Translations under genes and position numbers: made by a program | Part shown: positions 1 to 17,775 of the stretch, piece after piece | Layout: every line of letters begins with the position of its first letter | Position numbering within the stretch: the stretch's first letter is position 1 | NCBI GenBank assembly: GCA_965224245.1 | Contig: OZ245046.1 | Coordinates: forward strand, 1,728,001 to 1,792,000 | Direction: 5' to 3' | Source: Candidatus Eiseniibacteriota bacterium | Lineage (GTDB): Bacteria > Eisenbacteria > RBG-16-71-46 > CAZAMP01 | DNA: 64,000 bases | Notes under the pieces: model-generated | Seen by the model: only the letters and a program-made list of their open reading frames with translations | The model's database searches: none | Told to the model about the DNA's origin: nothing

Positions 1-1805
1 AAGCGCTCGCCGGGAACCGCGGCCTGCTGATCGGCGACCCGCTGCTCGATCTCGGCCTTCAGGATCGTGTAGTACGCCACCGCCTCGGGCGTGCCTCGCA
101 TCAGAACGATCGGCGCCATGTGGATGAGCAGATCGAAGAACGTCAGCGGCGCGGGCACGGTCCGGGCGAGCTCCAGGATCTCGCCCCACAGACGCGCCGC
201 CTGGGCCGAGTAGTCCACGATCCGGGACAGCGCGGTCGTGTCGAGGCGCGTGCCCACGATCTCCTCCAGCCGCGCGGTGACGTGCTTGATCTGCTGCACG
301 GACGCGTCGATCTCGAGCGAGCTCACCTCGCGAAGCGCGGCCGGCGGATGGAGTCCCAGCACCGGAACGGAGAAGCGCGTGCCGTAGTACTCGAACCAGC
401 GGGCGAGACTGCGGCCGTTGTTCGTGTTGTAGACCACCAGATCGGGATCCGGCGGTCCCGCGATGCCGTAGACCGAGACGAGCGGGCTGTCGCCCACCAG
501 CATCGCGCCGATGTCGCTCGTCATCGCCGAGCTGGCGAACTGGGAGAAGCCCTCCGCGAGCGCACGCGGGATGTACCGTCCCGCCTGCCGGCTGGCGCCG
601 ATCAGGGCGGCGTGGTTCTCGGGGAAGTACGGCGTGATCCCGAGCGCCCGCAGGATCTCGACCGGCCCCATCCCCGAGCACCAGGCCACCGGACGATCCG
701 GATCCTCGGCGGCGGCCTGGACGTCCCGGTAGTAGTCACGCAGGAGCTCCTTCAGCTGGTGCGCGGTCCGGAGCGGCACCCGCCCCTCCACCATCCCGCC
801 CTCGCGGCTCATCCGCGTGGGCTTCACCGTGACGCGCTCGGTGGTCGACTGGAGGGTGTTCGAGATCTCGCGGCGCCGAAGCTCCTTGAGCCGCTCGCGG
901 GATCGGATGAAGTGGACCAGCGCCCGGTTGTGCGGCGTGCTGAGACCGTGACGCTCGCCCTCCTCCACGATCGCGCCGTTGATGGCCTCCACCTCGGTGC
1001 GATTGCCCCGCGCGAGGTCCTGCCACATCGAGGGCCGGTTCTTTCCCAGCGCGGTCAGCGATCCGGTCACCGGCCGGAACGGATCCTCCTCGTCCACGAT
1101 CGGGATCCCCCTGGCCTTCATGACGGCGACGATCTCGTTCGTGAGGTCCCGCATGAAGTCCATGAGGTCGGGGTCGTCGAGGAGCTCGCGACACGTGAGC
1201 CCGGTGAGCGCGGACGTCGGGTTCACCACCGCGTTGTGGAGGAGCTTCTGCCAGATCGAGTTGTCGATGTTGTCGACGACCTCGGTGGCGAGGTCGGCTT
1301 TTCGGAACACCTCGGCGATCGTCTGCATCTGCGAGGTCGGGCGGCCCTGGTAGGGCGCGATCTGGATCGGCTTGATGCCGACGCGGTAGCGGAGGCGGTT
1401 CGGCCCGACGTGCTGCACGCTGTGGTAGGTGATCCCGCAGAGCACGCGCTCGGGGCCGACCGCGTCGGCGATCGTGCGCGTGTTCCCGATCCCGTTCTGG
1501 AGACTCAGGACGAGCGTGGACGGCGTCAAGACCGGACTCGTTTCCTCGATGGCGTCCCCGGTCTGGTAGCTCTTGACGGCCAGGAACACGAGGTCCGCGG
1601 GTCCGACGTCGCACGCGCTGTCGAGGACGTGGATGCGGACCTTTCGCTCGGTCCGCCCCGCCTCGGAGATGTACATGCCGTCGTCGTCGAGGAGTCGCGC
1701 GCGCGCGCGATTGCGCTCGATGAAGATCACGTCCTCGCCCGCCTCGGTGAGCTGGGCGCCGATCAGTCCGCCCAGCGCGCCGGCCCCGACGACCACGATT
1801 CTCAT
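1..1805 (-). CDS. panE: Fusion: 2-dehydropantoate (ketopantoate) reductase + 2-hydroxyacyl-CoA dehydratase/benzoyl-CoA reductase-type subunit domain; 3'-partial, runs off window
   Basis: Hand-translated; absent from the ORF track because no stop lies in the window. ATG 1805 gives MRIVVVGAGALGG (Rossmann), VKSY, LQNGIG, WQKLLHNAVVNP, SMWQDL..RTEVEAING (PanE motifs). The frame continues without a stop through ~900-750 into PVAWCSGMGPVEILRALG..YFPENHAALIGA..PDLVVYNTN..HMAPIVLMRG (HAD-family motifs). Confidence 0.85.
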   Translation of the reverse strand, partial: MRIVVVGAGALGGLIGAQLTEAGEDVIFIERNRARARLLDDDGMYISEAGRTERKVRIHVLDSACDVGPADLVFLAVKSYQTGDAIEETSPVLTPSTLVLSLQNGIGNTRTIADAVGPERVLCGITYHSVQHVGPNRLRYRVGIKPIQIAPYQGRPTSQMQTIAEVFRKADLATEVVDNIDNSIWQKLLHNAVVNPTSALTGLTCRELLDDPDLMDFMRDLTNEIVAVMKARGIPIVDEEDPFRPVTGSLTALGKNRPSMWQDLARGNRTEVEAINGAIVEEGERHGLSTPHNRALVHFIRSRERLKELRRREISNTLQSTTERVTVKPTRMSREGGMVEGRVPLRTAHQLKELLRDYYRDVQAAAEDPDRPVAWCSGMGPVEILRALGITPYFPENHAALIGASRQAGRYIPRALAEGFSQFASSAMTSDIGAMLVGDSPLVSVYGIAGPPDPDLVVYNTNNGRSLARWFEYYGTRFSVPVLGLHPPAALREVSSLEIDASVQQIKHVTARLEEIVGTRLDTTALSRIVDYSAQAARLWGEILELARTVPAPLTFFDLLIHMAPIVLMRGTPEAVAYYTILKAEIEQRVADQQAAVPGER

Positions 1806-1847: not shown

Positions 1848-2621
1848 CTACCGGTTCTTCCAGATCGGCTTGCGCTTCTCGGTGAAGGCCGCGAGTCCCT
1901 CCTGCACGTCCTCGGTGATCATCAGCTCTTCCAGAAAGCGGCGCTCCGCGCGTGTGAGCAGCTCGGCGAACGGTCGCGCCTCGGCCAGCCGGAGTGCTCG
2001 CATGTTCATGCGCATGACCAACGGGCTCGCCCGGCGGAAGTCGTCGAGCGTCGCCTCGAGCGCCCCGTCGAGCTCTCCCTGCGGCACCACCCGGGCGACC
2101 AGACCGAGCTCGCGCATGGCCGCGGCGTCGTAGATCCGTCCGGAGGCCGTGATCTCGGCCGCGCGCGCCGGTCCCACGAGCGCCGGAAGCCGGACGACCG
2201 CGACCGGCGCGAAGAACCCCAGCCGGATCTCCGGCTGACCGAACGTCGCGCGCTCGCTGGCCAGGAGCACGTCCGCCATCATGACCAGCTCGAAGCCGGC
2301 ACCCAGCGCCGCGCCGTCCACGGCCATGACGACGGGGACGTCCAGCGCGTCGAGTCGGCGGAACAGCTCCCCGAACGCCCCGATCATCGGGCGGACCTCC
2401 GACGGCGCGTGCTCACCGACGTCGGCCCCCGCGCTGAAGGCCTTGCCGTTCGCGGTGATGGCCACGGCCTTGAGCGAGTCGTCGTGCGCGACGCGGTCCA
2501 GCGCCGCCGTGAGCTCCCTCATCATCGCGGTGGTGAGGATGTTGAGGGGCGGCGCATCCAGCGTGACGTAGGCCACCCCGTCGCGCGTCGTGACCCGAAC
2601 GGTTGCGGTCTCGGTGCTCAT
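1848..2621 (-). CDS. dch: Enoyl-CoA hydratase, cyclohexa-1,5-diene-1-carbonyl-CoA hydratase (Dch)-like
   Basis: Crotonase motifs PPLNIL, FSAGADV, GAGFEL, GQPEIRLG; C-terminus EGLAAFTEKRKPIWKNR. ATG 2621 overlaps the upstream stop (ATGA). Context is a benzoyl-CoA cluster. Confidence 0.75.
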   Translation of the reverse strand: MSTETATVRVTTRDGVAYVTLDAPPLNILTTAMMRELTAALDRVAHDDSLKAVAITANGKAFSAGADVGEHAPSEVRPMIGAFGELFRRLDALDVPVVMAVDGAALGAGFELVMMADVLLASERATFGQPEIRLGFFAPVAVVRLPALVGPARAAEITASGRIYDAAAMRELGLVARVVPQGELDGALEATLDDFRRASPLVMRMNMRALRLAEARPFAELLTRAERRFLEELMITEDVQEGLAAFTEKRKPIWKNR

Positions 2622-3088
2622 GTCTTCACCTTCGGCGGCTCGGTGTCCGGCGTCCGGACCCACGTCGTGCCCGGTCGCTCCAGGCTGTAGTAGACGTGGA
2701 TCTCCTCCATCTCCTCGTACATGCGGGGAACGGCCTGGAGCGGCATCCCGATCTCCAGCGCGTCGGGCGGCGCGCTCTCCCCGAGCGGGGCGAGGAGCCG
2801 TCCTCCGTCCTCGAGGTCGAGCACCCCGACCCAGTAGACCCCGAGGTCCTCGAAGCCCGCGGGGGCGGCGTCGATCCTCGTGTACGTGACCAGCGTTCCC
2901 CGGCCCGAGACCTCGACGTACTCGAACTCGCTCCCGAGACAGCTCGCGCAGTCGGCGCGCGGCGGGAACGTCCGGGCGCCGCACTCGGCACAGCGTGACC
3001 CCATGATCCGGCCGTTCCGCAGGTGTCGCGCGAAGTCGGCGATCTTCGTGTGAGGACAGAAGCTGACCCTTCCGAACCACTCGAACAT
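2618..3088 (-). CDS. Zn-ribbon/OB-fold (DUF35, ChsH2-like) thiolase partner protein
   Basis: CAECG..FPPRADCASC zinc ribbon followed by GTLVTYT OB-fold; directly downstream of the thiolase. Confidence 0.9.
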   Translation of the reverse strand: MFEWFGRVSFCPHTKIADFARHLRNGRIMGSRCAECGARTFPPRADCASCLGSEFEYVEVSGRGTLVTYTRIDAAPAGFEDLGVYWVGVLDLEDGGRLLAPLGESAPPDALEIGMPLQAVPRMYEEMEEIHVYYSLERPGTTWVRTPDTEPPKVKT

Positions 3089-3091
3089 GGG

Positions 3092-4246
3092 TCACTCCCT
3101 CCGGAACACGTGGACGAAGCAGTACTGACCGATGCCCCCCACGTTGTGCGTGAGTCCGACGTCGGCGTCGGCCACCTGCCGCTCGCCGCACTCGCCCCTG
3201 AGCTGGTGGACGATCTCGGCGGCCATGGACACGCCGGTGGCCCCGATCGGATGTCCCTTCGCCTTCAGTCCGCCGTCCACGTTGACCGGCGTCTTGCCCC
3301 CGACGTACGAGAGCTTCTCCTGGACGAACGCTCCTCCCTGCCCCTTCTCGCAGAAGCCGAGGTCCTCGTAGGCCATGATCTCGGCGATGGTGAAGCAGTC
3401 GTGCACGTCGGCGACCTTCACCCCGTCGGCCTCGATGCCGGCCATCGCGTACGCCTGGCGCGCGGCCTCCCGCGCGGCCGGGAGCCCGGTGAGATCCGGT
3501 CGGCGCAGGACGGACATGCTGGCGCTCGCGCACCCGAGGCCGTCCAGCCACACGACATCGTCGCGCATCGCACGCGCCCGCTCCTCGGAGGCCAGGACGA
3601 GACAGGCGGCGCCGTCGGCGTTCGCGCAGCAGTCGTACACCCGGAGCGGAGAGGCCACGGGGTCCGAGAGGCGCGCCTTCTCGCGCGTGATCTCCTTCTG
3701 GAACATCGCGCACGGATTGCGCGCGCCGTAGTAGTGGTTCTTGATCGCGACGTCTTCCAGCTGCTCGACGCTGGTGCCGTACTCGTGCATGTGGCGATGC
3801 GCGAACATCGCGTAGTAGCCGGGGAAGGTCGTGCCGAACACCGACTCCCACTGTACGTCGCCGACCCGGCCCATGAGGGCGAGCACCTCGGCGGTGCCGA
3901 GCTCGGTCATCTTCTGGCAGCCGACCACGAGGATCACGTCGTGCAGGCCGGAGCCGATGGCCATCCACGCGGTCCGCAGCGCCGCGGAGCCCGACGCGCA
4001 GGCCACCTCGGTGAGCCAGGTCGGCTTCGGGTTGAGGTTCAGGTACTCCTGGATCACGCCCGCCAGCGAGCGCTGCTTGTGGTACTCGGGGACCGAGCCG
4101 ATCACCGAGGCGTCGATGTCCTCGGCCGCGAGCCCGGCGTCCCGGAGGGCCTCTCGGTACGCCTCGAAGGCCAGCTCCTGGACGTTCGCGTCGCTGCGAC
4201 GCCCGAAGGGCGTGTGCCCGACGCCCACCACGCCGACCCGCCTCAT
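3092..4246 (-). CDS. Thiolase (SCP-x/archaeal-type acetyl-CoA acyltransferase)
   Basis: MRRVGVVGVGHTPFG, EVACASG (catalytic Cys), VHDCFTIAE, NVDGGLKAKGHPIGATG, THNVGG. GGAG RBS before ATG 4246. Confidence 0.92.
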   Translation of the reverse strand: MRRVGVVGVGHTPFGRRSDANVQELAFEAYREALRDAGLAAEDIDASVIGSVPEYHKQRSLAGVIQEYLNLNPKPTWLTEVACASGSAALRTAWMAIGSGLHDVILVVGCQKMTELGTAEVLALMGRVGDVQWESVFGTTFPGYYAMFAHRHMHEYGTSVEQLEDVAIKNHYYGARNPCAMFQKEITREKARLSDPVASPLRVYDCCANADGAACLVLASEERARAMRDDVVWLDGLGCASASMSVLRRPDLTGLPAAREAARQAYAMAGIEADGVKVADVHDCFTIAEIMAYEDLGFCEKGQGGAFVQEKLSYVGGKTPVNVDGGLKAKGHPIGATGVSMAAEIVHQLRGECGERQVADADVGLTHNVGGIGQYCFVHVFRRE

Positions 4247-4277
4247 CGGTCCGGTCTCCTCGATCGCGTCGCGTCCC

Positions 4278-5027
4278 TCACATGTACTGCCCTCCATCGA
4301 CCCGGATCACCGACCCGGTGACGTGCCGCGCGCGCTCGGTGCAGAGAAAGACGACCACGTTGGCCACGTCCTCGGGCTCGGCGAGCCGCCCGAGGACCGT
4401 CTCCTTCATCGACGCGTTCCGGAACTCCGCGGGGATCGCCCGGGCCATCTCGGTCATCACGAGGCCCGGCGCCACGGCGTTGACGTTCACGTTGAACTTC
4501 CCCAGCTCGCGCGCCAGGGCCTTGGTGAGCGCGATGTTCCCGGCCTTCGAGGCGGCGTAGTTGCTCTGGGCGTGCTTGCCGCGAAGCCCGTTGATCGAGG
4601 ACACGTTGACGATCTTCCCGTGTCGCTGGTCCTTGAAGATCCCGGCCGCCGCGCGGTTGTAGTTGAAGTAGCCCTTGAGATTGACGTCGAGAACGCGGTC
4701 CCACTGCGCCTCGGACATCTTCCACACGACCGCGTCGGCGGTGATCCCCGCGTTGCAGACCAGGATGTCGAGGCGTCCCAGCTCCTCTCGCGCCCGCTCG
4801 ACGATGGTCTCGGCGTCGGAGAAGTCGGCCACGTCGGCGGCGTACACCACGCATCGTACGTCCTCGCGCTCGATCGTCTCCCGGAGCCGCTCGGTCTCCT
4901 CCGTGGGCTTCCGGCACACGATCGCCACGTGACACCCCAGTCGTGCCAGCCCGAGGGAGATCGCGGCCCCGATCCCCCGGTTGCCGCCGGTGACGACGGC
5001 GACTTGCCGGTCGAGCTCTCGCTTCAC
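4278..5027 (-). CDS. Short-chain dehydrogenase/reductase, FabG-like (3-hydroxyacyl-CoA dehydrogenase candidate)
   Basis: TGGNRGIG, CNAGIT.D, NYAASKAG, NAVAPG, VDGG. Confidence 0.9.
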   Translation of the reverse strand: MKRELDRQVAVVTGGNRGIGAAISLGLARLGCHVAIVCRKPTEETERLRETIEREDVRCVVYAADVADFSDAETIVERAREELGRLDILVCNAGITADAVVWKMSEAQWDRVLDVNLKGYFNYNRAAAGIFKDQRHGKIVNVSSINGLRGKHAQSNYAASKAGNIALTKALARELGKFNVNVNAVAPGLVMTEMARAIPAEFRNASMKETVLGRLAEPEDVANVVVFLCTERARHVTGSVIRVDGGQYM

Positions 5028-5031
5028 GCTC

Positions 5032-5994
5032 TCAGCTTCCCTTCAGCTCGGCTCCGCAGCGCCCGCAGTGCTGGAACTGCTCGGGGATCCCCTTCGCGCC
5101 GCAGGCGGGGCAGACGTGGCTCGGCGGACCCCACACGAACTCGCTGCTCCCACCGCTGGCCGCCAGGTCCCGGAGATGGCGGTAGCCGGCCTTTCGCTTC
5201 TCGACGAAGGCCGTCATCCCCTCGTAGGGCTCGGCCGACGTGAAGTGCAGGCTCAGCCAGTCGCGCGCGTGACCGATCGTCGCGTGCCACGCGGTCTCCT
5301 TCCAGTAGTTGAGCTGCTGCTTGGTGTACCGCGTGCACTCGGGGAACTTGTCGATGCAGTGCTGTGCGATCTCTTCGACGGTGTCGTCGAGCTTCTCCCG
5401 GGGCACGACGCGGTTCACGAGACCCCACTCGAGCGCCTGCTTCGCCGGGATTCGCGGGTTCAGAAACAGGATCTCCCGGGCTCGCCGGTCGCCCACGTGA
5501 ATCGAGAGCCACTGCGTCGCGCCGCCGCAGGCCACGCTGCCCACGCTGGTTCCGACCTGCGCGATGTACGTGTCGTCGGCCATCACGGCCAGGTCGCAGG
5601 CCAGCTGCGACTCGTTGCCCCCGCCCACGGCCATGCCGTTCAGCCGGGCGATCGTGACCTTTCCGCTCTTCAGGATGCTCTCGATGTAGCTGGAGAACAG
5701 ACCCATGTACTTCCAGTAGTGACGCGGTCGCTGCGTGTAGATCCCGGCGTACTCCTTGACGTCTCCTCCCGTGCAGAACGCCTTCTCCCCGGCGCCGGTG
5801 TAGACGATGACGCCCACCGCGTCGTCCTCCGACGCGTCCGTGAACGCGGCGATGAGCTCGCGGAGGGTGTCGGTGGTATAGGCGTTGTAGGCCTCCGGAC
5901 GGTTGATGGTGATGCGCGCCACCATGTCCTTCTTCTCGTAGAGGATGTCCTTGAAGGCCATCTCCGCCGCCGGTACCGAGGGGAAGTAGTCCAT
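5032..5994 (-). CDS. oah: 6-oxocyclohex-1-ene-1-carbonyl-CoA hydrolase (Oah/BamA)-like crotonase with C-terminal zinc ribbon
   Basis: YNAYTT, AFCTGGDVKEYA..Y, NGMAVGGGNE..LACD, FPECTRYTKQQLNYWK..W, ARDWL; C-terminal CPACG..CGRCG. AAGGAG RBS. Confidence 0.75.
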   Translation of the reverse strand: MDYFPSVPAAEMAFKDILYEKKDMVARITINRPEAYNAYTTDTLRELIAAFTDASEDDAVGVIVYTGAGEKAFCTGGDVKEYAGIYTQRPRHYWKYMGLFSSYIESILKSGKVTIARLNGMAVGGGNESQLACDLAVMADDTYIAQVGTSVGSVACGGATQWLSIHVGDRRAREILFLNPRIPAKQALEWGLVNRVVPREKLDDTVEEIAQHCIDKFPECTRYTKQQLNYWKETAWHATIGHARDWLSLHFTSAEPYEGMTAFVEKRKAGYRHLRDLAASGGSSEFVWGPPSHVCPACGAKGIPEQFQHCGRCGAELKGS

Positions 5995-6641
5995 CACGTC
6001 ATCTCCTTGCGCCCGGCCGGACCGGCCGCTCCGTGGGCTGTGCCGCCCGTGAGACCCGGCAGCACCAGATCGATCATCTCGTGGCCGAGCTCCGCGACCG
6101 GTCCGTCGCGCTCGGGCTCGAACCACGTGAAAATCCAGTTCAACATGCCGAACATGAACAGCGTGTAGTGGCGAACGAGCCGCTCGCGGTGCGGCTCGGT
6201 CATCCCGGCGGGCAGCAGGTCGCGGACGACTCCGGCCAGGATCTTGAAGTACTCGGCCCGGAGTCGCCGGACGCTCTCGTAGAACTCGCCCTCGAGGGAC
6301 TCCAGCTCGAAGGCGCAGACCTTCATCTCGTTGGTCTTCTCGGTGTAGAAGTGGAGGTGGTTCTCCACGAGCCGCTGGAGCTTCTCTCGCGGAGCGGCGT
6401 CCTCGTCGGAGATGGCCTGCTGTCGCTCCAGGAGGACCGAGAACGTGCGGTGCTGGATCTGGAAGAGCAGGTCGTCCTTGCTCTTGAAGTAGTAGTACAT
6501 GCCCGAGAGGCTGAAGCGGGTGACGCGGGCCACGTCGCGGATCGTGGTCTGGTCGTAGCCCTGCCGGGCCATGAGCTCCGAGGCGGCGTCGAGCAGACGC
6601 TCGCGCTTCGTCGGTGAGCCCACGCCGGGCTCAGTCGTCAC
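5994..6641 (-). CDS. TetR-family transcriptional regulator (KstR2/PaaR-like C-terminus)
   Basis: HTH: LLDAASELMARQGYDQTTIRDVA..SGMYYYFKSKDDLL; C-terminus FGMLNWIFTWF.P.G. Start uncertain (GTG 6641 or TTG 6662). Confidence 0.9.
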   Translation of the reverse strand: MTTEPGVGSPTKRERLLDAASELMARQGYDQTTIRDVARVTRFSLSGMYYYFKSKDDLLFQIQHRTFSVLLERQQAISDEDAAPREKLQRLVENHLHFYTEKTNEMKVCAFELESLEGEFYESVRRLRAEYFKILAGVVRDLLPAGMTEPHRERLVRHYTLFMFGMLNWIFTWFEPERDGPVAELGHEMIDLVLPGLTGGTAHGAAGPAGRKEMT

Positions 6642-9516
6642 CTGGGATCGCTCCGGGTCCAACCATGGCCTCCTGGGTCGACTTCGCGTCCGCCGTGCGG
6701 ACGGGCGCGTTCTCTCGGAGCCCCGCGAGGATCTTCTCGGGGGTGATGGGCAGCTCCGTCACCCGGACCCCGCAGGCGTCGTAGATCGCGTTCGCGATGG
6801 CGCCGATAACGGGCAACAGCGAGCCCTCGCCGATCTCCTTGGCTCCGAACGGCCCGCGGGGCTCGAAGCTCTCCACCGCCACCGACCGGATCGCGGGCGT
6901 CTCGTGGATGCTGGGGATCAGGTAGTCGTGGAGCGTGGGATTGGCGATCGTGCCGTCGGGGCGGACGACGACGTCCTCGAGGAGCGTCTCGCCGAGCCCC
7001 ATGATGACCGCACCCTCCACCTGTCCGTGAAACGTGACGGGATTGATGACGGTGCCCGCGTCGCTGTAGTCGACGACGCGCTCCACGGTCACGTAGCCGG
7101 TCTCGAGGTCCACGTCGACCTCGCACACCGCGGTGGAGAAGCTGTAGGCGGGAGACGTCCCGACGGTCCCGCCCTTGAACGAGCCGCCGAGCCTCGACGG
7201 GGGCCGGTAGCACCCGGTTCCCACCACCGGTCCCGACCGCGCGAAGAGCGCGCGCGCCGTCTCGTCCCACCCGAGCCCCACGTCGGGATGCGTCTCGACG
7301 AAGATCCGTCCCTCGCGCGCCACCAGCGCGCCGGAGTCGCAGCCGAGAACCGAGGCCGCCACCCCGAAGAGCTTGCCGCGAACCTCGGCGGCGGCCGCCT
7401 TCACCGCGTTGCCGGCCATCAGCGTGACCCGGCTCGAGTAGGAGCCGAGGTCGAAGGGCGCGAGCACCGAGTCGCACTCCACGAGCCAGACGCGGTCGTA
7501 CGGAATGCCCAGCTCCTCGGCGGCGATCTGGACCAGGACCGTGTCCGAGCCCTGTCCGATCTCGGCCGCGGCGATGTGGACGGAGACCGCGTTGCCGTCC
7601 TCGTGCACGCGGATCACCGCGTTCGAGTGCGGGAAGTCGGAGCGATGAATCGGATAGCCGGCGCCCGAGACGAAGCCGCCGCAGCTCGCGCCGATCCCTT
7701 TGCCCCGGGGCAGGCGGCCGCGCTTCTCGCGCCAGCCCGACGCCTCGCGCGCCCCTTCGATGGTGGCGCGGAGCTCGCACGACGAGATGTCGAGGTCGTT
7801 GCAGGTCAGGGTGCCGGGATCCATCGCGTTCCGGAGGCGGATCTCCAGGGGATCCAGCCCGAGGTCCTCGGCGATGGCATCCATCAGCGTCTCGAACGCG
7901 AAGCGGGGGTGCGGCACGCCGTGTCCGCGCATGGCGCCCGACGCCGGCAGGTTCGTGTAGACGCGGAGCCCCTGGTAGCGGAAGTGCGACATCTTGTACA
8001 GCGTGGGCAGCATCGAGCCCGCGTAGTACGCGGTGATCACGCCGAACGACGTGTAGGCGCCGCCGTCGAGCACGGTGTGGAGGTCCACGGCCGTGATTCG
8101 TCCGTCGCGGCGCACGCCGATCCGGAGATCCATGTACTGCTTGTGACGCCCGCGGAAGTGCCGGACCATCTCCTCTCGCGTGTAGCGCATCATCACCGGG
8201 CGTCCCGTGCGCCGTGACAGGATCACGGCGCAGAAGTCCAGCGGCGTCGTCTCGGCCTTGACCCCGAAGCCTCCCCCCACCGCGGGACGGATCACGCGGA
8301 TGTTGCCGGTGGGAATGCCGAGCGTCATGGCCAGCGTCTTCTGCACGTAGTAGGGCGCCTGCGCGGACGACCAGAGCGTCACCTTCTCGCCGTGATGCTC
8401 CCAGCGCGCCAGCGACGCGTGGGGCTCGATCGGCGACTGGTAGGTCCGGTTCCCCACGAAGCGCTGCTCGCGCACGTGGTCGGCCTCGGCGAAGCCGGCC
8501 TCCACGTCGCCGAAGTGCCAGTCCACCCGGGTGTTCACGTTGCCCGCGTAGCGCGGGTCCTCGGGATGGATGGGCGTGGCGTCGGGGGCCAACGCCGCCT
8601 TGGGGTCGAACGCGGCGGGGAGCTCCTCGTACTCCACCTCGATCAGCTCGAGCGCGCGCTCGGCCGTCTCCTCGTCCACGGCGGCCACCGCGGCGACCTC
8701 GTCACCGACGTAGCGGACGCGCTCGGTGGCCAGCACGTGCTCGTCGAAGCGCGCCGGGCTCACGCCGTACCGCACGTCCGGCACGTCGGCGCCGGTGATC
8801 ACGTCGAGCACGCCCGGGAGCGCGCGAGCGCGCGAGACGTCGATGCGCCGGATGATTCCGTGTGCGATCGGGCTGGTCAGGATCTTCCCGTGGATCATGC
8901 CCGGCAGCCGGAGGTCCGCCGTGTACGTCGCGCGTCCCGAGACCTTGTCGGGGGCGTCGTAGCGCGTGACGCCGTGGGTGACCACGCGCTGGTCACGCAC
9001 CTGATCTCGCTCGGCATCCGAGGCGGGCGCCGTCGTGAACGGCTCGTCGGCGAACCGCCGCCAGTCGCGGATGGCGGCCACGATCCGGGGATAGGTGCCG
9101 CAGCGGCACAGGTTCGCGCTCAGCGCCTCGCGAATCTCCGCCTCGGTCGGGTCGGGTTTGCGATCGATCAGCGCCTTGGCCGACAGGAGCATGCCGGACG
9201 TGCAGTAGCCGCACTGGAGGGCGCCGTGCTTGATGAAGGACTTCTGCAGCGGATGAAGCTCGCCGCCGGCGCCGAGGCCCTCCACGGTGGTCACGTCGGC
9301 GCCGTCCACGGTCACGGTCAGCGTGAGGCAGGCCATCACCACCCGACCGTCCACGATGACCGTGCACGCGCCACAGTCGCCGAGGCCACATCCCTCCTTC
9401 GTGCCGGTCAGATCGAGCGTCTCGCGGAGGGTGGAGAGGAGGGTGTCGGAGGGCTTCACCGCGATCGCATGTCGTCGACCATTGACGCGAAGCGTGATGA
9501 GCGTCTCCTCCGCCAT
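6631..9516 (-). CDS. Xanthine-oxidase-family molybdoenzyme, fused [2Fe-2S] + Mo subunits; 4-hydroxybenzoyl-CoA reductase gamma-alpha-like
   Basis: N-terminus GTKEGCGLGDCGACT, QCGYC, NLCRCGTY; Mo domain VGGGFG, GAMRGHG, DLGSYSSRVTLMAGNA, GQVEG, GAKEIGEG. GGAG RBS before ATG 9516. Confidence 0.85.
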   Translation of the reverse strand: MAEETLITLRVNGRRHAIAVKPSDTLLSTLRETLDLTGTKEGCGLGDCGACTVIVDGRVVMACLTLTVTVDGADVTTVEGLGAGGELHPLQKSFIKHGALQCGYCTSGMLLSAKALIDRKPDPTEAEIREALSANLCRCGTYPRIVAAIRDWRRFADEPFTTAPASDAERDQVRDQRVVTHGVTRYDAPDKVSGRATYTADLRLPGMIHGKILTSPIAHGIIRRIDVSRARALPGVLDVITGADVPDVRYGVSPARFDEHVLATERVRYVGDEVAAVAAVDEETAERALELIEVEYEELPAAFDPKAALAPDATPIHPEDPRYAGNVNTRVDWHFGDVEAGFAEADHVREQRFVGNRTYQSPIEPHASLARWEHHGEKVTLWSSAQAPYYVQKTLAMTLGIPTGNIRVIRPAVGGGFGVKAETTPLDFCAVILSRRTGRPVMMRYTREEMVRHFRGRHKQYMDLRIGVRRDGRITAVDLHTVLDGGAYTSFGVITAYYAGSMLPTLYKMSHFRYQGLRVYTNLPASGAMRGHGVPHPRFAFETLMDAIAEDLGLDPLEIRLRNAMDPGTLTCNDLDISSCELRATIEGAREASGWREKRGRLPRGKGIGASCGGFVSGAGYPIHRSDFPHSNAVIRVHEDGNAVSVHIAAAEIGQGSDTVLVQIAAEELGIPYDRVWLVECDSVLAPFDLGSYSSRVTLMAGNAVKAAAAEVRGKLFGVAASVLGCDSGALVAREGRIFVETHPDVGLGWDETARALFARSGPVVGTGCYRPPSRLGGSFKGGTVGTSPAYSFSTAVCEVDVDLETGYVTVERVVDYSDAGTVINPVTFHGQVEGAVIMGLGETLLEDVVVRPDGTIANPTLHDYLIPSIHETPAIRSVAVESFEPRGPFGAKEIGEGSLLPVIGAIANAIYDACGVRVTELPITPEKILAGLRENAPVRTADAKSTQEAMVGPGAIPGDD

Positions 9517-9539
9517 ACGGCTCTCCTCCACTCCCGGGG

Positions 9540-10412
9540 TCACGTGACACCCGCGCGTCTGGCCGCGGTCGTCAGCGCACGCCGCGTCAGCACCTCTACG
9601 AGCTCGTGCCGGTAGTCCACCGTGCCGCGGACGTCGGTGATGGGCCGGGCCTCGGTGGCGGCGATCGCGGCGGCCGTCGCGACGCACTCCGCCGTGGGCA
9701 TCTCCCCCACGAGTGCGCGACCGCACGCGGCGGCCAGGAGCGGCGTCGGCCCCACCGCGCCGAGCACGACGCGCGCGTCGGCGATGGTCCCGCCGTCCAG
9801 CACGATCCGGGCGGCCACGGCGGCCACCGCGAGGGCGGAGCCCCGGCGTCGGGAGAAGCGTTCGTACGCGGCGCCCGAGTGCGGCGGCTGTCGCGGGATC
9901 CGGATCTCGGTGAGGAGCTCGCCCGGCTCGAGCACCGTCCGGCGGGGACCGCGGAAGAAGTCGAGCGCCGCGAGCGTGCGTGAGCCGCCGTCGGCCTCGA
10001 GCGTCAGCGTGGCATCGCCGGCGATACAGATGGGGGGCGTGTCGGCACAGGGAACGGCCCGACAGAAGTTGCCGCCGATCGTGGCCTGGTTGCGAACCTG
10101 CTCCCCCGCCACGGTGCGTGCCGCCTCGGCCAGCGGCGCGAAGTGCTCGCGAACGTACGGGTCGTCGCAGACGTGCGTGAGGGACGCGGTGGCGCCGACG
10201 ACCAGCTCGGACCCGTCCATGCGGATCTCGCGCAGATCGGCGACCCGGGACAGATCGATCAGGTGCTCGACGCGGTCGCGCCCCTGCTTGAGGTCGGGCA
10301 GCACCTCGGTGCCCCCCGCGAGGTAGCAGGCCCCAACGCCCAGACGGCGCCCCAGCGCACTGGCCTCGGCCAGCGTCTCGGGTCGGTGATACGAGAAGTC
10401 ACCCATTCGCAT
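9540..10412 (-). CDS. FAD-binding subunit of xanthine-oxidase family (CoxM/HcrB-like, no [4Fe-4S] insert)
   Basis: YHRPETL, LAGGTEV, QVRNQATIGGN, ADTPP, PITDVRGT..YR. Confidence 0.9.
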   Translation of the reverse strand: MRMGDFSYHRPETLAEASALGRRLGVGACYLAGGTEVLPDLKQGRDRVEHLIDLSRVADLREIRMDGSELVVGATASLTHVCDDPYVREHFAPLAEAARTVAGEQVRNQATIGGNFCRAVPCADTPPICIAGDATLTLEADGGSRTLAALDFFRGPRRTVLEPGELLTEIRIPRQPPHSGAAYERFSRRRGSALAVAAVAARIVLDGGTIADARVVLGAVGPTPLLAAACGRALVGEMPTAECVATAAAIAATEARPITDVRGTVDYRHELVEVLTRRALTTAARRAGVT

Positions 10413-14178: not shown

Positions 14179-17100
14179 CTATGGAAGTCGCAGCACCCGG
14201 GTGTCACGAACGCGCCCGGGCGCGGTGAGCCGGATGAAGTAGACGCCCGGCATCACCGTGCGATGGTGCGCATCCCGCCCGTCCCACGTGATCGTGTGGG
14301 CGCCGACCGGGTAGACGCCGTCGCCGAGCGTCGCGACGCGCCGGCCTCCGACGTCGTAGGCGGCGATCGTCACGTGCTCGTCGGTCCCGGCGAATCCCGA
14401 GGCGATGAACCCGATCCGGAGCGGGCCTGCCCGCCACGGGCTCGGCCCCACCGACAGCGCGGACGGTGCCCGCACGGTTCCCTCGTGGAGCACGACGGCC
14501 TCCCCGAGGCCGTTCCGGGCGGTGAGTCGAAGCTCGCTCCCCCACGCGCCGTCCAGCACGAGCGTGCCTTCGGTGGCATCGGCGATCTCGGTTCGCCACG
14601 GCGCGCCGCCCCGCCGCGTCTCGACGTCGTAGCGAACGCCCGCGTCGGGACCGGGCTCGGTGGCCCAGGAGATCACGGTCTCCCGCTCGCGCGAGTCGAT
14701 CGCGAACCGCGTCAGCGCGATGGCGGCGTCGATGGTGAACGACGCGCCGGTGGTCGCCTCGCCGGAGACCGCGGAATCGGAGGGGACGACGCGGACCTCC
14801 GCGAAGCGCGTCGGGAGATGCGGGACGCGCACCGTCACGCGATTGGCGCCGGCTCCCCCGACCCCGGCGACGAGGGATCGATACGTCGACCCGCCGTCGA
14901 GCGACAGCTCCAGATCCGCGGGCTGAGCACCGTCCCAGCGTACCTCGACCGGCGCGCCCACGTTCCAGGTCTCGCCCCCGGTGGGCGCGGTGAGGTGGTA
15001 GCGATTCAGGTCGAGAAGACGCGCGATCCCGCTGCCCTGCGACGGACGAGCGGTCAGGAGATCCGCGAAGCCGTCGTCCACGTGGTCGCCTCCCGCCGCG
15101 ACGCGCTCCCCGAGACGATCCCCGGGTGTGCCGTACATCGTCACGTCGGCGATCGCGTCCAGACGCGGCCCCCCGAAGTACACGTCGATGCGCCCCGCGT
15201 CCACACCCGCCGCATCGGAGCCCGGCGAGCCGACGACGACGTCGGCGTAGCCGTCGCCGTTGAGATCCGGATGGAGGACGACGGCGGCGCCGGTCTCGTC
15301 GCCCGTCGCGCCCTCGATCACGAGTGCCGGGACGTCACTGACGTCGAAGGCGCCGAGGTACACGTACGCCCGGCCGGCATCGTCACCCACGCGGTCGTCG
15401 GTCGGGGCCCCGACCACGAAGTCGGGTCGTCCGTCCCCGTTCACGTCCCAACCGGCGCTCACGGCCGACGCGAAGGAGTCGCCGGGCCAGGGCTGGTCGA
15501 TCCGGATCGCACCCGAGCCCGAGCCGCTCGCCCCGCCGAGCCACAGGTAGACGTCGTCGTTGCCGTCGAGGCGTCCCACGACGTCGTCGTATCCGTCGCC
15601 GTCCACGTCGCCGGCGGCCACGCCGTTCTCGACGTTGCGATCGGCGTCGTAGCCGGTGTCGAAGGCCGGGCCGCCGTAGTAGATGTAGGTGGAGCCGTCG
15701 TAGGACTCGGAGATCGCGACGTCCTCGAAGCCGTCGCCGTTGAAGTCGCCCGCGCTCCCCACGTGCGAGCCGAACCGCTGCACGCCGATCCCGCCGTCGA
15801 AGGTGGCGTCCGCGACACCGTCGAACGACGGACCGCCGAGGTACACGAACACGCTCCCGCCGCCGGCCGCCTCGGTGGCCCCGACGAGGAGATCGGGGTG
15901 CCCGTCCGCGTCGACGTCCGCGGCCCCGACGCTCGTTCCGAAGAGGTCGTTCGAGCTCGGTCCGCCGATGACGACGTCGGGAACGTCATCGAGAGCCGGT
16001 CCCCCGAAGAAGACGAACGCGGCCCCGGCGTTCGAGCCCACGACGTCGTCCTGGGGGGCGCCCACCGCGAAGTCGTCGTGGCCGTCGGCGTTCAGGTCGC
16101 CCGCGTTCACGAGGCTCTCACCGAACCGCGAGGACCCCGACGTGCCGGAGAGCGACACCGCCTCGCGCTGAGCGATCGCCGGAGGCGCGACCGCTCGCAC
16201 GAGGCGTAGCGGCCCCACGGTGCGCGACGTCCCGGGCCCAGCCGCGCGGCCGGTGTACGTGATCCGGATGCTCGCGGCGTCGGTCACCACGTCGGGCATC
16301 GGGATCGTCAGCGTGTTCTCGTCGTCGCCCCCGACGCCGTGAGCCACCTCGATCCACGTGTGGCCGTCGACGGACGTGCTGACGTCGGCCCGGTCGTGCC
16401 CGCGCCAGCGCACGACGGCCTCTTTGCCGGCGACGAGTCGCGTGCCCGGCGACGGTGCGAGTATCTGGTACGGGAAGACCTCCTCGACCCATATGCGACC
16501 CCGGGCCGTGCCTCCCTCGTCATCGTATGGAGCGCTGAACGCGACGTCGGGATAGCCGTCGCCGTCCATGTCCCCCACGCCGGTGACGGCGGTGCCGAGC
16601 CGATCGGCACCGGTGCCGAACCAGCTCAGCGTCGGTGTCGTGCTGAGCGCCGATCCGCCGAGAAACAGATCCGCGCGACCCGCGTTGCCGATCGACCCGA
16701 CCGGAAACGCGTACGAGCCCACGAGAATGTCGTCGTACCCGTCGTGATCGACGTCGCCGGCCGCCGCCACGCTCGTGCCCATGCCGTGATTGGGGATCTG
16801 CCCCGGGAGTGTGACGCCCCGGAGCGAGAACCCGTCGGGTGCACCGTACTTCACGTAGACGAGGCCGTACCCGAGCTCGGCGTTCGGTCCTCCGACGGCG
16901 AAGTCGTCGAAGCCGTCGGCGTCGACGTCGCCAACGCCGGCGATGGCAGCCCCGAAGTCGTCGTCGGTGTCGCCGAAGATGCTGAGGTCGGCCGTCACGT
17001 CCAGGTGGCGGGAGCCGAAGTACCCCGCGATGAAGCTGCCGGTCGGCGCCCCGACCGCGAAGTCGTCGAGACCGTCGTCGTTGTAGTCGCCGATGATGGC

Positions 17101-17775
17101 CACGGCCGCGCCGTAGTCCGTGCCGGCCACGGGACCCACGATCTGCGCGTCGGCCACGGTGTCGTAGCCGAGACCGCCACGGTACAGGTGGACGCGTCCC
17201 GTGCTCGCGTAGCCGGGCTCGGAGATGACGATGTCGTCGTACGCGTCCCCGTCGACGTCGCCGCCGCCGGCCAGCGCGTAGCCGAAGAGCCCGCCGGACA
17301 CGGGGCCGTCGAAGGACACGTCCGCGGTGCCGTCGAGGCCGGGACCGCCGAAGAAGATGTCGACGTGCCCGGAGCTCCCACCACTGGCCGCGTCATTGTA
17401 ATCACCGACCATGATGTCGTCGTACCCGTCGCCGTTGAAGTCGCCTGCGCTGGCGCAAGTGACCCCAAAGCTCTGGGCGCTGCCGCTGGCGGGATACAGC
17501 ACGATGCTGAAGCTCTGCGGCGCCCGGGGCCCACCGAGATAGACGAAGGCGAGGCCGGTCACCCCGTAGGAGGGGGTGCCGATGACGAGGTCACCGTAGC
17601 CGTCGCCGTCGAAGTCGCCGCCGGCGATGGACGTGCCGTTATAGCCGCCGGCCGGGTGCCCGACGGTTTCCAGATACGTGTGGCTCGAGATGGCGACGGC
17701 GTACTCGGCCAGGGCGCAGAGGGCGATGACCGCGATGACCAGGACGGCGACGCGGCGGGCGGTCTTGCACGGCAT
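14179..17775 (-). CDS. Secreted FG-GAP (integrin-alpha-like) repeat protein, two propellers, FlgD-like C-terminal domain
   Basis: Signal peptide; many GDxNGDGxDDxxVGAP repeats in two blocks, each followed by an AP..G....G.....VRW Ig-like module; ends YDVGGRRV..WDGRD..PGVYFIRL. Confidence 0.9.
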   Translation of the reverse strand: MPCKTARRVAVLVIAVIALCALAEYAVAISSHTYLETVGHPAGGYNGTSIAGGDFDGDGYGDLVIGTPSYGVTGLAFVYLGGPRAPQSFSIVLYPASGSAQSFGVTCASAGDFNGDGYDDIMVGDYNDAASGGSSGHVDIFFGGPGLDGTADVSFDGPVSGGLFGYALAGGGDVDGDAYDDIVISEPGYASTGRVHLYRGGLGYDTVADAQIVGPVAGTDYGAAVAIIGDYNDDGLDDFAVGAPTGSFIAGYFGSRHLDVTADLSIFGDTDDDFGAAIAGVGDVDADGFDDFAVGGPNAELGYGLVYVKYGAPDGFSLRGVTLPGQIPNHGMGTSVAAAGDVDHDGYDDILVGSYAFPVGSIGNAGRADLFLGGSALSTTPTLSWFGTGADRLGTAVTGVGDMDGDGYPDVAFSAPYDDEGGTARGRIWVEEVFPYQILAPSPGTRLVAGKEAVVRWRGHDRADVSTSVDGHTWIEVAHGVGGDDENTLTIPMPDVVTDAASIRITYTGRAAGPGTSRTVGPLRLVRAVAPPAIAQREAVSLSGTSGSSRFGESLVNAGDLNADGHDDFAVGAPQDDVVGSNAGAAFVFFGGPALDDVPDVVIGGPSSNDLFGTSVGAADVDADGHPDLLVGATEAAGGGSVFVYLGGPSFDGVADATFDGGIGVQRFGSHVGSAGDFNGDGFEDVAISESYDGSTYIYYGGPAFDTGYDADRNVENGVAAGDVDGDGYDDVVGRLDGNDDVYLWLGGASGSGSGAIRIDQPWPGDSFASAVSAGWDVNGDGRPDFVVGAPTDDRVGDDAGRAYVYLGAFDVSDVPALVIEGATGDETGAAVVLHPDLNGDGYADVVVGSPGSDAAGVDAGRIDVYFGGPRLDAIADVTMYGTPGDRLGERVAAGGDHVDDGFADLLTARPSQGSGIARLLDLNRYHLTAPTGGETWNVGAPVEVRWDGAQPADLELSLDGGSTYRSLVAGVGGAGANRVTVRVPHLPTRFAEVRVVPSDSAVSGEATTGASFTIDAAIALTRFAIDSRERETVISWATEPGPDAGVRYDVETRRGGAPWRTEIADATEGTLVLDGAWGSELRLTARNGLGEAVVLHEGTVRAPSALSVGPSPWRAGPLRIGFIASGFAGTDEHVTIAAYDVGGRRVATLGDGVYPVGAHTITWDGRDAHHRTVMPGVYFIRLTAPGRVRDTRVLRLP

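Follow-up and report, generated by a model that had tools for sequence, protein, structure and literature searches.

A widespread fusion of a PanE/ApbA-type reductase to a 2-hydroxyacyl-CoA dehydratase-like domain that lacks the iron-sulfur cluster cysteines

The 2-hydroxyacyl-CoA dehydratases (HADs) and benzoyl-CoA reductases (BCRs) form a known family of ATP-dependent ketyl-radical enzymes and, to our knowledge, all characterized radical dehydratases and BCRs pair two cluster-bearing subunits. In clostridial pathways, a 2-oxoacid reductase, which is a separate D-2-hydroxyacid dehydrogenase, works together with CoA activation and dehydration. The closest described dehydratase is HadBC/HadI of Clostridioides difficile (PDB 3o3m), to which phenyllactyl-CoA dehydratase FldBC/FldI and 2-hydroxyglutaryl-CoA dehydratase HgdAB/HgdC are related. 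Two other groups invite comparison, namely, the class I BCRs (BcrABCD; BzdNOPQ, PDB 8s02; MbdONPQ, PDB 9gai) and the PanE/ApbA fold family, which includes ketopantoate reductase as well as NADH-dependent D-mandelate dehydrogenases (PDB 3wfi, 5x20, 8wl1). Here we analyze a gene that lies at the edge of a 64,000-nucleotide stretch of DNA from a Candidatus Eiseniibacteriota bacterium (assembly GCA_965224245.1, contig OZ245046.1, positions 1,728,001 to 1,792,000; hereafter the window, or G000:C1:1728001-1792000, where G000 is the source genome) and joins a PanE/ApbA-type reductase to an HGD-D domain, denoted HGD-D', in which all three cluster-ligand cysteines are replaced. We interpret the fusion as the ketoreductase of a pathway, anchored to a heteromeric 2-hydroxyacyl-CoA dehydratase that is activated by ATP, a four-protein ketyl-radical enzyme, and hold this interpretation with belief and doubt in about equal measure.

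The open reading frame (ORF) starts with the ATG at position 1805 and extends on the minus strand, uninterrupted by stops, to the window edge (3..1805, 601 aa), exactly as described in an earlier sequence-only reading of this DNA; with the flanking DNA added, it stays open to a total of 759 aa (L005 11526..13805). The last 158 residues thus lie outside the window, upstream of its position 1 (G000:C1:1727526-1728000, minus strand). The architecture given in the same reading, PanE followed by a linker of ~35 aa and a HAD-family domain, is borne out by profile matches, and the strings cited for it, WQKL, RTEV, GFSQFASSAMTSDIG and YNTNNGR, are all present in frame. Residues 1-305 (891..1805, minus strand) comprise the PanE/ApbA-type NAD(P)H oxidoreductase domain, with matches to Pfam ApbA (residues 3-152, 125.7 bits against a cut-off of 22.2) and ApbA_C (residues 179-303, 125.8 bits against 22.7) and to NCBIfam TIGR00745 apbA_panE (252 bits against 141.35). 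A poorly conserved interdomain linker of ~38 aa (about residues 306-342; 780..890, minus strand) is delimited by low model confidence (pLDDT), a variable consensus and the start, at about residue 342, of the homology to a neighboring paralog. The first ~260 residues of the HadB-like HGD-D' domain occupy positions 3..779 (minus strand), the remainder lying beyond the window; HGD-D (PF06050) matches from residue 380, with 94.5 bits on the window part and 168.4 bits in the genome scan, and the NCBIfam model of the HadB alpha subunit yields 171 bits against a cut-off of 750. The AlphaFold2 model (mean pLDDT 88.7, pTM 0.66) consists of two well-folded domains connected by a disordered linker, with pLDDT below 50 for residues 322-339. 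In Foldseek comparisons, the N-terminal domain reaches TMt 0.77-0.92 against structures of the PanE/ApbA family and of D-mandelate dehydrogenases, which share the fold, with 0.86-0.92 for ketopantoate reductases, whereas the C-terminal domain matches HadB (3o3m_A) with TMt 0.93 and rmsd 1.9 A.

This fusion is real, widely conserved and old. A word-indexed protein search, in which 8000 candidates were scored, found 429 proteins; all 119 clusters listed besides the query are full-length, fused proteins of 748-806 aa, 60-68% identical to the query over 95-100% of its length, and all contain PF02558, PF08546 and PF06050. Database records that name these homologs at all call them '2-dehydropantoate 2-reductase', except for one 'hypothetical protein'. 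Among contigs of one genome per species, the fusion was confirmed in 113 genomic stretches, from hosts recorded as Acidobacteriota, Gemmatimonadota, Krumholzibacteriota, Eisenbacteria, Myxococcota/Anaeromyxobacter and others. Logan contigs from 4 runs on 2 samples of 1 study also cover the linker, with 0 differences and 0 gaps; as these runs are possibly the assembly's own source, their support extends no further than the absence of an indel. Given the 119 further full-length clusters and the 113 confirmed genome matches, the fusion is no artefact of assembly or sequencing. A literature search on combinations of the enzyme names retrieved no paper pairing ketopantoate reductase with BCR or with 2-hydroxyacyl-CoA/2-hydroxyglutaryl-CoA dehydratase; we likewise found no paper that reports the subunit make-up proposed here, in which one member of an alpha/alpha' pair is clusterless, the activator ATPases are two in number and a PanE-type reductase is built in.

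In BzdO, the active-site [4Fe-4S] cluster is held by Cys95, Cys128, Cys380 and water, and the coordination in HadB is the same, as stated in the report on these enzymes (Fuchs et al. 2025, PMC11971306). In a HMMER alignment, the three BzdO cysteines correspond to C86, C124 and C351 of the neighboring paralog HGDcys, invariant in 48/48 HGDcys orthologs. These, in turn, align with S425, G464 and S692 of the fusion, whose HGD-D' domain is 43% identical to HGDcys (173/401, E 1e-116). The S425 codon is located at 531..533 and the G464 codon at 414..416 (both minus strand), whereas S692 lies beyond the window. Among the 122 fused homologs, position 425 is occupied by S in 79, N in 29, C in 6, H in 6 and P in 2; position 464 by G in 120, S in 1 and C in 1; and position 692 by A in 55, S in 31, T in 22, C in 12, E in 1 and F in 1. 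All but one of the 122 have at most one cysteine at these positions, compared to all three cysteines in 49/54 stand-alone HGD-D representatives. The fusion retains the HGD-D fold and the PF06050 match but not the three-cysteine ligand set, which is complete in HGDcys. The sequence-only reading was right that cluster cysteines are absent but undercounted them, giving two where all three are replaced; the family patterns it cited are matched by HGDcys (GYSQEICSYLTSDIG, FNTNQC). Because none of the three ligands remains, HGD-D' is predicted to be unable to bind a canonical [4Fe-4S] cluster. A stand-alone HGD-D protein (P0200; 413 aa, 30% identical) has lost the triad as well (Q/G/N), so clusterless HGD-D subunits may have arisen more than once.

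HGDcys (410 aa; L005 9375-10607, minus strand), rather than the canonical BcrCBAD encoded further down the operon, appears to be the dedicated, HadB-like partner of the fusion. Synteny was counted over 80 loci kept from the 113 confirmed ones, with the denominators given by the loci that reach far enough. An ATPase gene (ATPase1) comes next after the fusion in 72/72 loci and is followed by HGDcys in 40/60 and by Had in 18/60; within 8-10 kb downstream (47 loci), HGDcys is found in 38, a second ATPase gene (ATPase2) in 37 and Had in 34. In 5/5 tested genomes with no adjacent HGDcys, a copy 52-56% identical is encoded elsewhere, and BcrB scores above the cut-off in 3 of these five. The two ATPases are 39% identical to each other, score 158.1 and 189.1 bits with the dehydratase activase model TIGR00241 (cut-off 125.4) and contain cysteine pairs, C134/C173 and C128/C167, that are invariant in 43 and 26 sequences, respectively. 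These are presumably the residues that bridge the cluster in activators of the BcrAD_BadFG family, so the activator ATPase with its cysteine pair is present here, but as two genes rather than one.

Complex prediction for the HGD-D' (alpha') and HGDcys (alpha) pair, with three runs and 3 controls, supports a heterodimer, although it does not show one. The interface score (ipSAE) was 0.73, 0.69 and 0.72 (median 0.72) against 0.00 for the best of the 3 controls; the mark applied to this score is reached by 58/80 solved complexes and by 2/110 mismatched pairs. Contacts agree by at least 93% across the runs, the partner has a pLDDT of 91, and in the predicted pseudo-symmetric interface, the loops of the fusion that formerly bound the cluster (418-424, 461-473, 688-704) meet the corresponding loops of HGDcys (79-85, 121-136, 347-363). 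Together with the HAD-like features of HGDcys, this model is the reason why we read the fused HGD-D' as an alpha' partner. The suggestion in the sequence-only reading that the domain is a non-catalytic pseudo-enzyme or docking module fits the predicted heterodimer and the invariable ATPase neighbor; the coupling to CoA supply that was attached to it is poorly supported, as discussed below.

By sequence similarity, HGDcys looks HAD-like rather than BCR-like. It matches HadB with an E-value of 4.7e-51 compared to 3.6e-20 for BzdO, and HadB is also far ahead of MbdO; the HGD-D' domain of the fusion matches HadB with 1.9e-34. With the BcrB equivalog model, the fusion scores 110.7 and HGDcys 126.6 (cut-off 486.55), and with the BzdO model, 56.5 and 76.2, respectively (cut-off 448.6). 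The position of BzdO His131, the catalytic residue beside the aqua-[4Fe-4S] cluster according to the same published account (PMC11971306), is taken in HGDcys by V127, which is nearly invariant. The module resembles HadBC/HadI in that HadB is the closest match of its two HGD-D proteins, that HGDcys likewise has the three-cysteine triad and lacks the BCR-specific histidine, and that the ATPases score above the activase cut-off and retain the two cysteines. The module differs, however, in lacking a HadC-like beta subunit, so that instead of an alpha/beta pair with clusters in both subunits, the source genome encodes an alpha-like protein and a second, ligand-free alpha-like protein; in having two ATPase genes where HadI is one; in using a CoA ligase rather than a CoA-transferase; in its PanE/ApbA-type, covalently fused reductase, unlike the separate dehydrogenase of the clostridial pathways; and in its hosts (Acidobacteriota, Gemmatimonadota, Myxococcota and others) and its location in benzoyl-CoA-pathway operons.

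The similarities to class I BCRs go beyond the genomic neighborhood, HGD-D fold and position of the [4Fe-4S] triad: the module likewise consists of four products, two HGD-D proteins and two BcrAD-type ATPases. HGDcys, HGD-D' and the two ATPases could accordingly be viewed as the four subunits of a reductase or reductive dehydroxylase that consumes ATP stoichiometrically and acts on the CoA ester of a substituted or partly reduced ring, for example, a hydroxybenzoyl-CoA or its reduced keto tautomer; after reduction of a ring keto group by the PanE domain, the hydroxyl would be eliminated, and the resulting cyclohexadienoyl-CoA would pass to Dch, Had and Oah. We consider this BCR-like scheme unlikely, but not negligibly so. 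The two different ATPase genes resemble BcrA/BcrD, the module always occurs in benzoyl-CoA-pathway clusters with Had above the cut-off and Dch-, Oah- or BadI-like crotonases, BcrB above the cut-off is absent from 2/5 tested fusion-bearing genomes, and class I BCR genes are lacking from the 9 kb around the compact operon of locus L086, described below. Against this stand the valine in place of the catalytic His131, equivalog scores far below the cut-offs and the much better match of HGDcys to HadB than to BzdO or MbdO. Moreover, the genome scan found only four HGD-D genes in the source genome, BcrC, BcrB, HGDcys and the fusion, and hence no further HGD-D gene for a subunit of the double-cubane [8Fe-9S] type, whereas one subunit of the module is clusterless and carries a dehydrogenase domain. 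A separate, canonical BcrCBAD, with BcrA just below the cut-off, is encoded in the same operon, and the conserved residues of the PanE domain are those that we take to bind 2-oxo-carboxylates in the PanE family. Reading the module as an NADH-driven 'class III' benzoyl-CoA reductase was rejected as the main interpretation, given the presence of BcrCBAD in the operon and the absence of the catalytic histidine. NAD(P)H would, furthermore, be about 300 mV too positive, and we know of no precedent for hydride transfer into a radical cycle.

The reductase half of the fusion looks catalytically active. The GxGxxG motif spans residues 7-12, with G7, G9 and G12 kept in 121/122 homologs, and N104, K187, N191, S259, D263 and E271 are present in 122/122 (K187 codon, 1245-1247, and E271 codon, 993-995, both minus strand); aligned to solved reductases, the fusion has the full set of catalytic and substrate residues. 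We take their counterparts in Escherichia coli PanE to be N98, K176, N180, S244, D248 and E256. With catalytic residues and glycines (nearly) invariant, the domain would be a working dehydrogenase, not a relic, in keeping with the intact appearance noted in the sequence-only reading. The fusion thus shares with ketopantoate reductase and D-mandelate dehydrogenase both Pfam domains, the TIGR00745 match, the Rossmann motif and the catalytic set, but differs from PanE/ApbA in having an acidic residue at the end of strand beta2. In Rossmann folds, an acidic residue at this place favors NADH, whereas the biosynthetic enzymes use NADPH. Among 29 PanE-like sequences from the modules compared here (P0002 and P0124 included), 26 keep the full catalytic set and 27 have Asp or Glu at position 30, which suggests that the cofactor is probably NADH rather than NADPH.

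The sequence-only reading had linked the gene to CoA supply, with the PanE domain as the ketopantoate reductase of the cell and the clusterless HGD-D' as an acyl-CoA sensor or docking module that tunes CoA synthesis during ring degradation. Several facts agree with this proposal, which we nevertheless regard as very unlikely: the subfamily model TIGR00745 is passed, the fusion is the only PanE-family match above the cut-off in a genome that also encodes panB, panC and ilvC, and a solved archaeal ketopantoate reductase binds CoA, judging by the PDB title of 5ayv. However, the equivalog models of 2-dehydropantoate 2-reductase all fail (the best, NF005091, with 199.8 bits against a cut-off of 252), and the fusion, unlike ketopantoate reductase, is joined to HGD-D and resides in a catabolic operon at 1.73 Mb, 1.2 Mb away from panB and panC (C1:509-511 kb). 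Across 41 genomes of the same class, panB is above the cut-off in 39 but a PanE-family match in only 12, of which 3 are the fusion; hence the class apparently makes pantoate, in general, without PanE. IlvC is able to perform ketopantoate reduction. In several relatives (e.g., G003, G007, G034 and G039), PanE-family matches, some above and some just below the cut-off, adjoin panB or lie within a few kb of it; in G003 (C31:82-1861), a stand-alone PanE (312 aa, 274.7 bits) right beside panB looks like a housekeeping gene, unlike the fused one. The acidic position 30 also argues against a biosynthetic role, as does the fact that PanE-like genes travel with the HGD-D/ATPase/ligase module in unrelated lineages, even fused to the ATPase. 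In its behavior, the fusion is a pathway gene.

Other architectures of the module were traced starting from a distant fused protein, P0124 (38% identical, 728 aa), which was used for a metagenome scan followed by tblastn; 45 loci of at least 7 kb were listed. P0124 itself is a PanE~HGD-D fusion that has kept all three cluster cysteines, with relatives in L088. In 7 loci (type B), BcrC, BcrB, two ATPases, a ligase and a cysteine-retaining HGD-D gene are accompanied by a fusion of PanE to a BcrAD-type ATPase (612 aa, with ApbA, ApbA_C and BcrAD_BadFG domains in Pfam; L107:10211-12049, plus strand) as well as thiolase, Had, Oah-like and Dch-like genes. The PanE~ATPase fusion, directly after the cysteine-retaining HGD-D gene and the CoA ligase, was also observed in L114, L119, L131, L145, L150 and L153. 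In another 7 loci (type C), the ATPase is divided from a string of HGD-D, ligase and PanE, and in L086, an ADP-forming acyl-CoA synthetase, a stand-alone PanE, Had, Oah-like, Dch-like, HGD-D, ATPase and thiolase genes occur together. Divergent from this compact operon is a gene for a protein (677 aa; L086:438-2471, minus strand) of the aldehyde:ferredoxin-oxidoreductase family, which presumably also holds BamB, the class II benzoyl-CoA reductase subunit. A quick maximum likelihood tree with SH-aLRT support, in which the outgroup branch is very long, places all clusterless domains in one monophyletic group (100) with a long stem, nested in a clade (100) with HGDcys and the type B, type C and P0124 proteins, and P0124 is sister to the unfused HGD-D protein of L086 (99). 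The architectures and the topology of this quick tree indicate that the reductase was fused on at least three separate occasions, to three different partners.

The set that recurs in these loci, a PanE-like reductase, a CoA ligase, a cluster-bearing HGD-D protein and an ATPase, is what the conversion of a 2-oxo acid to an enoyl-CoA via the (R)-2-hydroxy acid and its CoA ester requires, and the clostridial hydroxyacyl-CoA dehydratase pathways follow this logic. In the proposed scheme, the PanE/ApbA domain would reduce a 2-oxo acid with NAD(P)H, probably NADH, to the (R)-2-hydroxy acid, which the CoA ligase would activate; the ATPase1/ATPase2 pair would act as a cluster-bridged activator injecting an electron into HGDcys, the putative catalytic subunit, while HGD-D' would serve as the pseudo-symmetric alpha' partner that completes the interface and tethers the reductase. 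The enoyl-CoA product would then pass through the hydratase, SDR/Had and thiolases into the benzoyl-CoA pathway. Heterodimer formation, the direction of the reaction and the substrate we infer, whereas the identities of the domains, the missing cysteine triad, the conservation, the synteny and the recurring associations and fusions are observed. With (4-hydroxy)phenylpyruvate-type substrates, all conserved neighbors would be explained: coumaroyl-/cinnamoyl-CoA would be converted by the hydratase, SDR and thiolase-DUF35 pair to (4-hydroxy)benzoyl-CoA, to be processed by the 4-hydroxybenzoyl-CoA reductase-like molybdenum enzyme, BcrCBAD and the Dch-, Had- and Oah-like enzymes. Just as possible are dicarboxylic 2-oxo acids, which would join the pathway at 3-hydroxypimeloyl-CoA. 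A hypothetical route from phenylpyruvate via cinnamoyl-CoA to benzoyl-CoA that follows the same logic is outlined in an earlier article (PMC13416013).

Several observations weigh against this scheme. The conserved PanE residues cannot tell ketopantoate from other 2-oxo acids, and with the fused domain being the only PanE-family gene of the source genome, a ketopantoate role is possible there. HGD-D' retains many residues of the active-site region, such as the FPENH motif and neighboring loops, and may do more than scaffold, and the complex prediction may have passed by likeness alone because the HadBC and BzdNO structures are solved. Classical HADs have one homodimeric activator and clusters in both the alpha and the beta subunit, and two ATPases are a BCR trait. 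Furthermore, the presence of Had, of the BadI-like crotonase and of a Dch-like hydratase suggests that the substrates are alicyclic and not aryl-lactyl compounds, and a PanE-like gene is found near HGD-D in just 22 of the 45 listed loci, 2 of these being the fusion itself, with none in the available DNA of the other 23. The module might also operate in reverse, as an exit route in which a glutaconyl-CoA-like enoyl-CoA is hydrated to the (R)-2-hydroxyacyl-CoA, the CoA is removed, and PanE oxidizes the acid, for example, to 2-oxoglutarate. The proximity to enzymes that make glutaryl- or glutaconyl-CoA-type intermediates, the reversible, ADP-forming acyl-CoA synthetase of some loci and the acidic position 30, which suits NAD+, are compatible with such a direction. 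Nevertheless, we deem it extremely unlikely: most loci encode an AMP-forming ligase, whose reaction is effectively irreversible (at least 45% identical to that of the source genome in 15 of the 47 loci that extend at least 8 kb downstream, with a more distant AMP-forming ligase in most others), and the conserved gene set showed no glutaryl-CoA dehydrogenase.

In HGD-D', the former active-site region is strongly conserved, a hint that the domain may still bind a CoA ester, and this is the starting point for a further interpretation, which appears improbable to us but deserves mention. The four proteins would be an unrecognized ketyl-radical machine with an integral NADH ketoreductase, in which HGD-D', once a catalytic subunit, has become the seat where the reductase finds its acyl-CoA, and a 2-oxoacyl-CoA or ring-keto acyl-CoA is reduced and dehydrated by radical chemistry without release. 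The repeated, independent reductase fusions to three different subunits and the conserved former active-site loops are compatible with such on-complex processing. If this were the case, the enzyme would perform deoxygenation of C=O to C=C and give ring acids that are hydroxylated or derived from aromatic amino acids a new point of entry to the benzoyl-CoA pathway in uncultured soil phyla.

In the source genome, the fusion is the ninth gene of a string of 20, all on the minus strand and given here in the 5'-to-3' order. The string starts with an XdhB-like, FAD-binding subunit of a molybdenum enzyme (9540..10412), followed by the molybdenum hydroxylase, in which the 2Fe-2S part and the molybdenum subunit share one open frame (6631..9726, 1031 aa). 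The latter scores 909.5 bits with TIGR03194 (4-hydroxybenzoyl-CoA reductase alpha; cut-off 994.55), with XdhA next at 575. The FAD subunit fits XdhB better than HcrB, and TIGR03195 aligns at model positions 1-120 of 321 only, so this subunit may lack the extra Fe-S loop that is present in the Thauera 4-hydroxybenzoyl-CoA reductase. Next are a TetR-family regulator (5994..6662); a BadI/Oah/MenB-like crotonase (5032..5994); an FabG/BadH-like short-chain dehydrogenase/reductase (SDR; 4278..5027); an SCP-x/BbsB-like thiolase (3092..4297) with its partner, a DUF35/ChsH2-type Zn-ribbon and OB-fold protein (2618..3088); and, directly upstream of the fusion, an enoyl-CoA hydratase (1848..2621), the best match to dienoyl-CoA hydratase (Dch) in the genome, albeit below the cut-off. 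No other protein of the cluster, the fusion included, is as conserved as the BadI-like crotonase, which has a zinc-ribbon-like C-terminal tail (CPACG...CGRCG; CxxC...CxxC) and is 74-81% identical between phyla. The fusion is followed by ATPase1, HGDcys, ATPase2 and the AMP-forming CoA ligase (genes 9-13), then by Had (TIGR03201, 440 against a cut-off of 339), a 3HCDH-ECH protein and a thiolase (genes 14-16) and, at the 3' end of the same string and outside the window, by Thauera-type BcrC (498 against 421), BcrB (688 against 487), BcrA (557.6 against 578) and BcrD (366 against 313) (genes 17-20; L005:1-2243 and L166:7681-11170, that is, G000:C1:1713681-1718243). The genome contains one Had above the cut-off, and the two crotonases of the cluster are its best matches to Oah and Dch.

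Much of this neighborhood recurs in the other loci. An enoyl-CoA hydratase precedes the fusion in 48/68 loci; up to 5 kb upstream (55 loci), TetR is found in 40, SDR in 38, the BadI-like crotonase in 22 and the SCP-x thiolase with DUF35 in 19; and molybdenum-enzyme genes are present upstream in 42-48 of 80 loci, although many of the 80 do not extend far enough to include them. An ADP-forming acyl-CoA synthetase (CoA_binding, Succ_CoA_lig and ATP-grasp_5 domains) replaces or stands beside the AMP-forming ligase in some loci (L009:15004-17349, minus strand; L067:5213-7306, plus strand; L086:2861-4942, plus strand). Elsewhere in the window, an ORF of 1198 aa (14179-17775, minus strand) with a short XAC2610-related domain as its only match is apparently unrelated to the cluster.

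With its clusterless pseudo-subunit, two activator ATPases and covalently attached ketoreductase, the fusion family, encoded amid operons for the anaerobic degradation of aromatics, departs from the characterized enzymes of its kind. Solving its reaction would turn it into a natural experiment on the contribution of the second subunit and its cluster in this enzyme class, and would put right the database label '2-dehydropantoate 2-reductase', a systematic misannotation that inflates apparent pantothenate capacity. A so far unknown route that feeds the benzoyl-CoA pathway in abundant, uncultured soil and sediment bacteria would probably also come to light.

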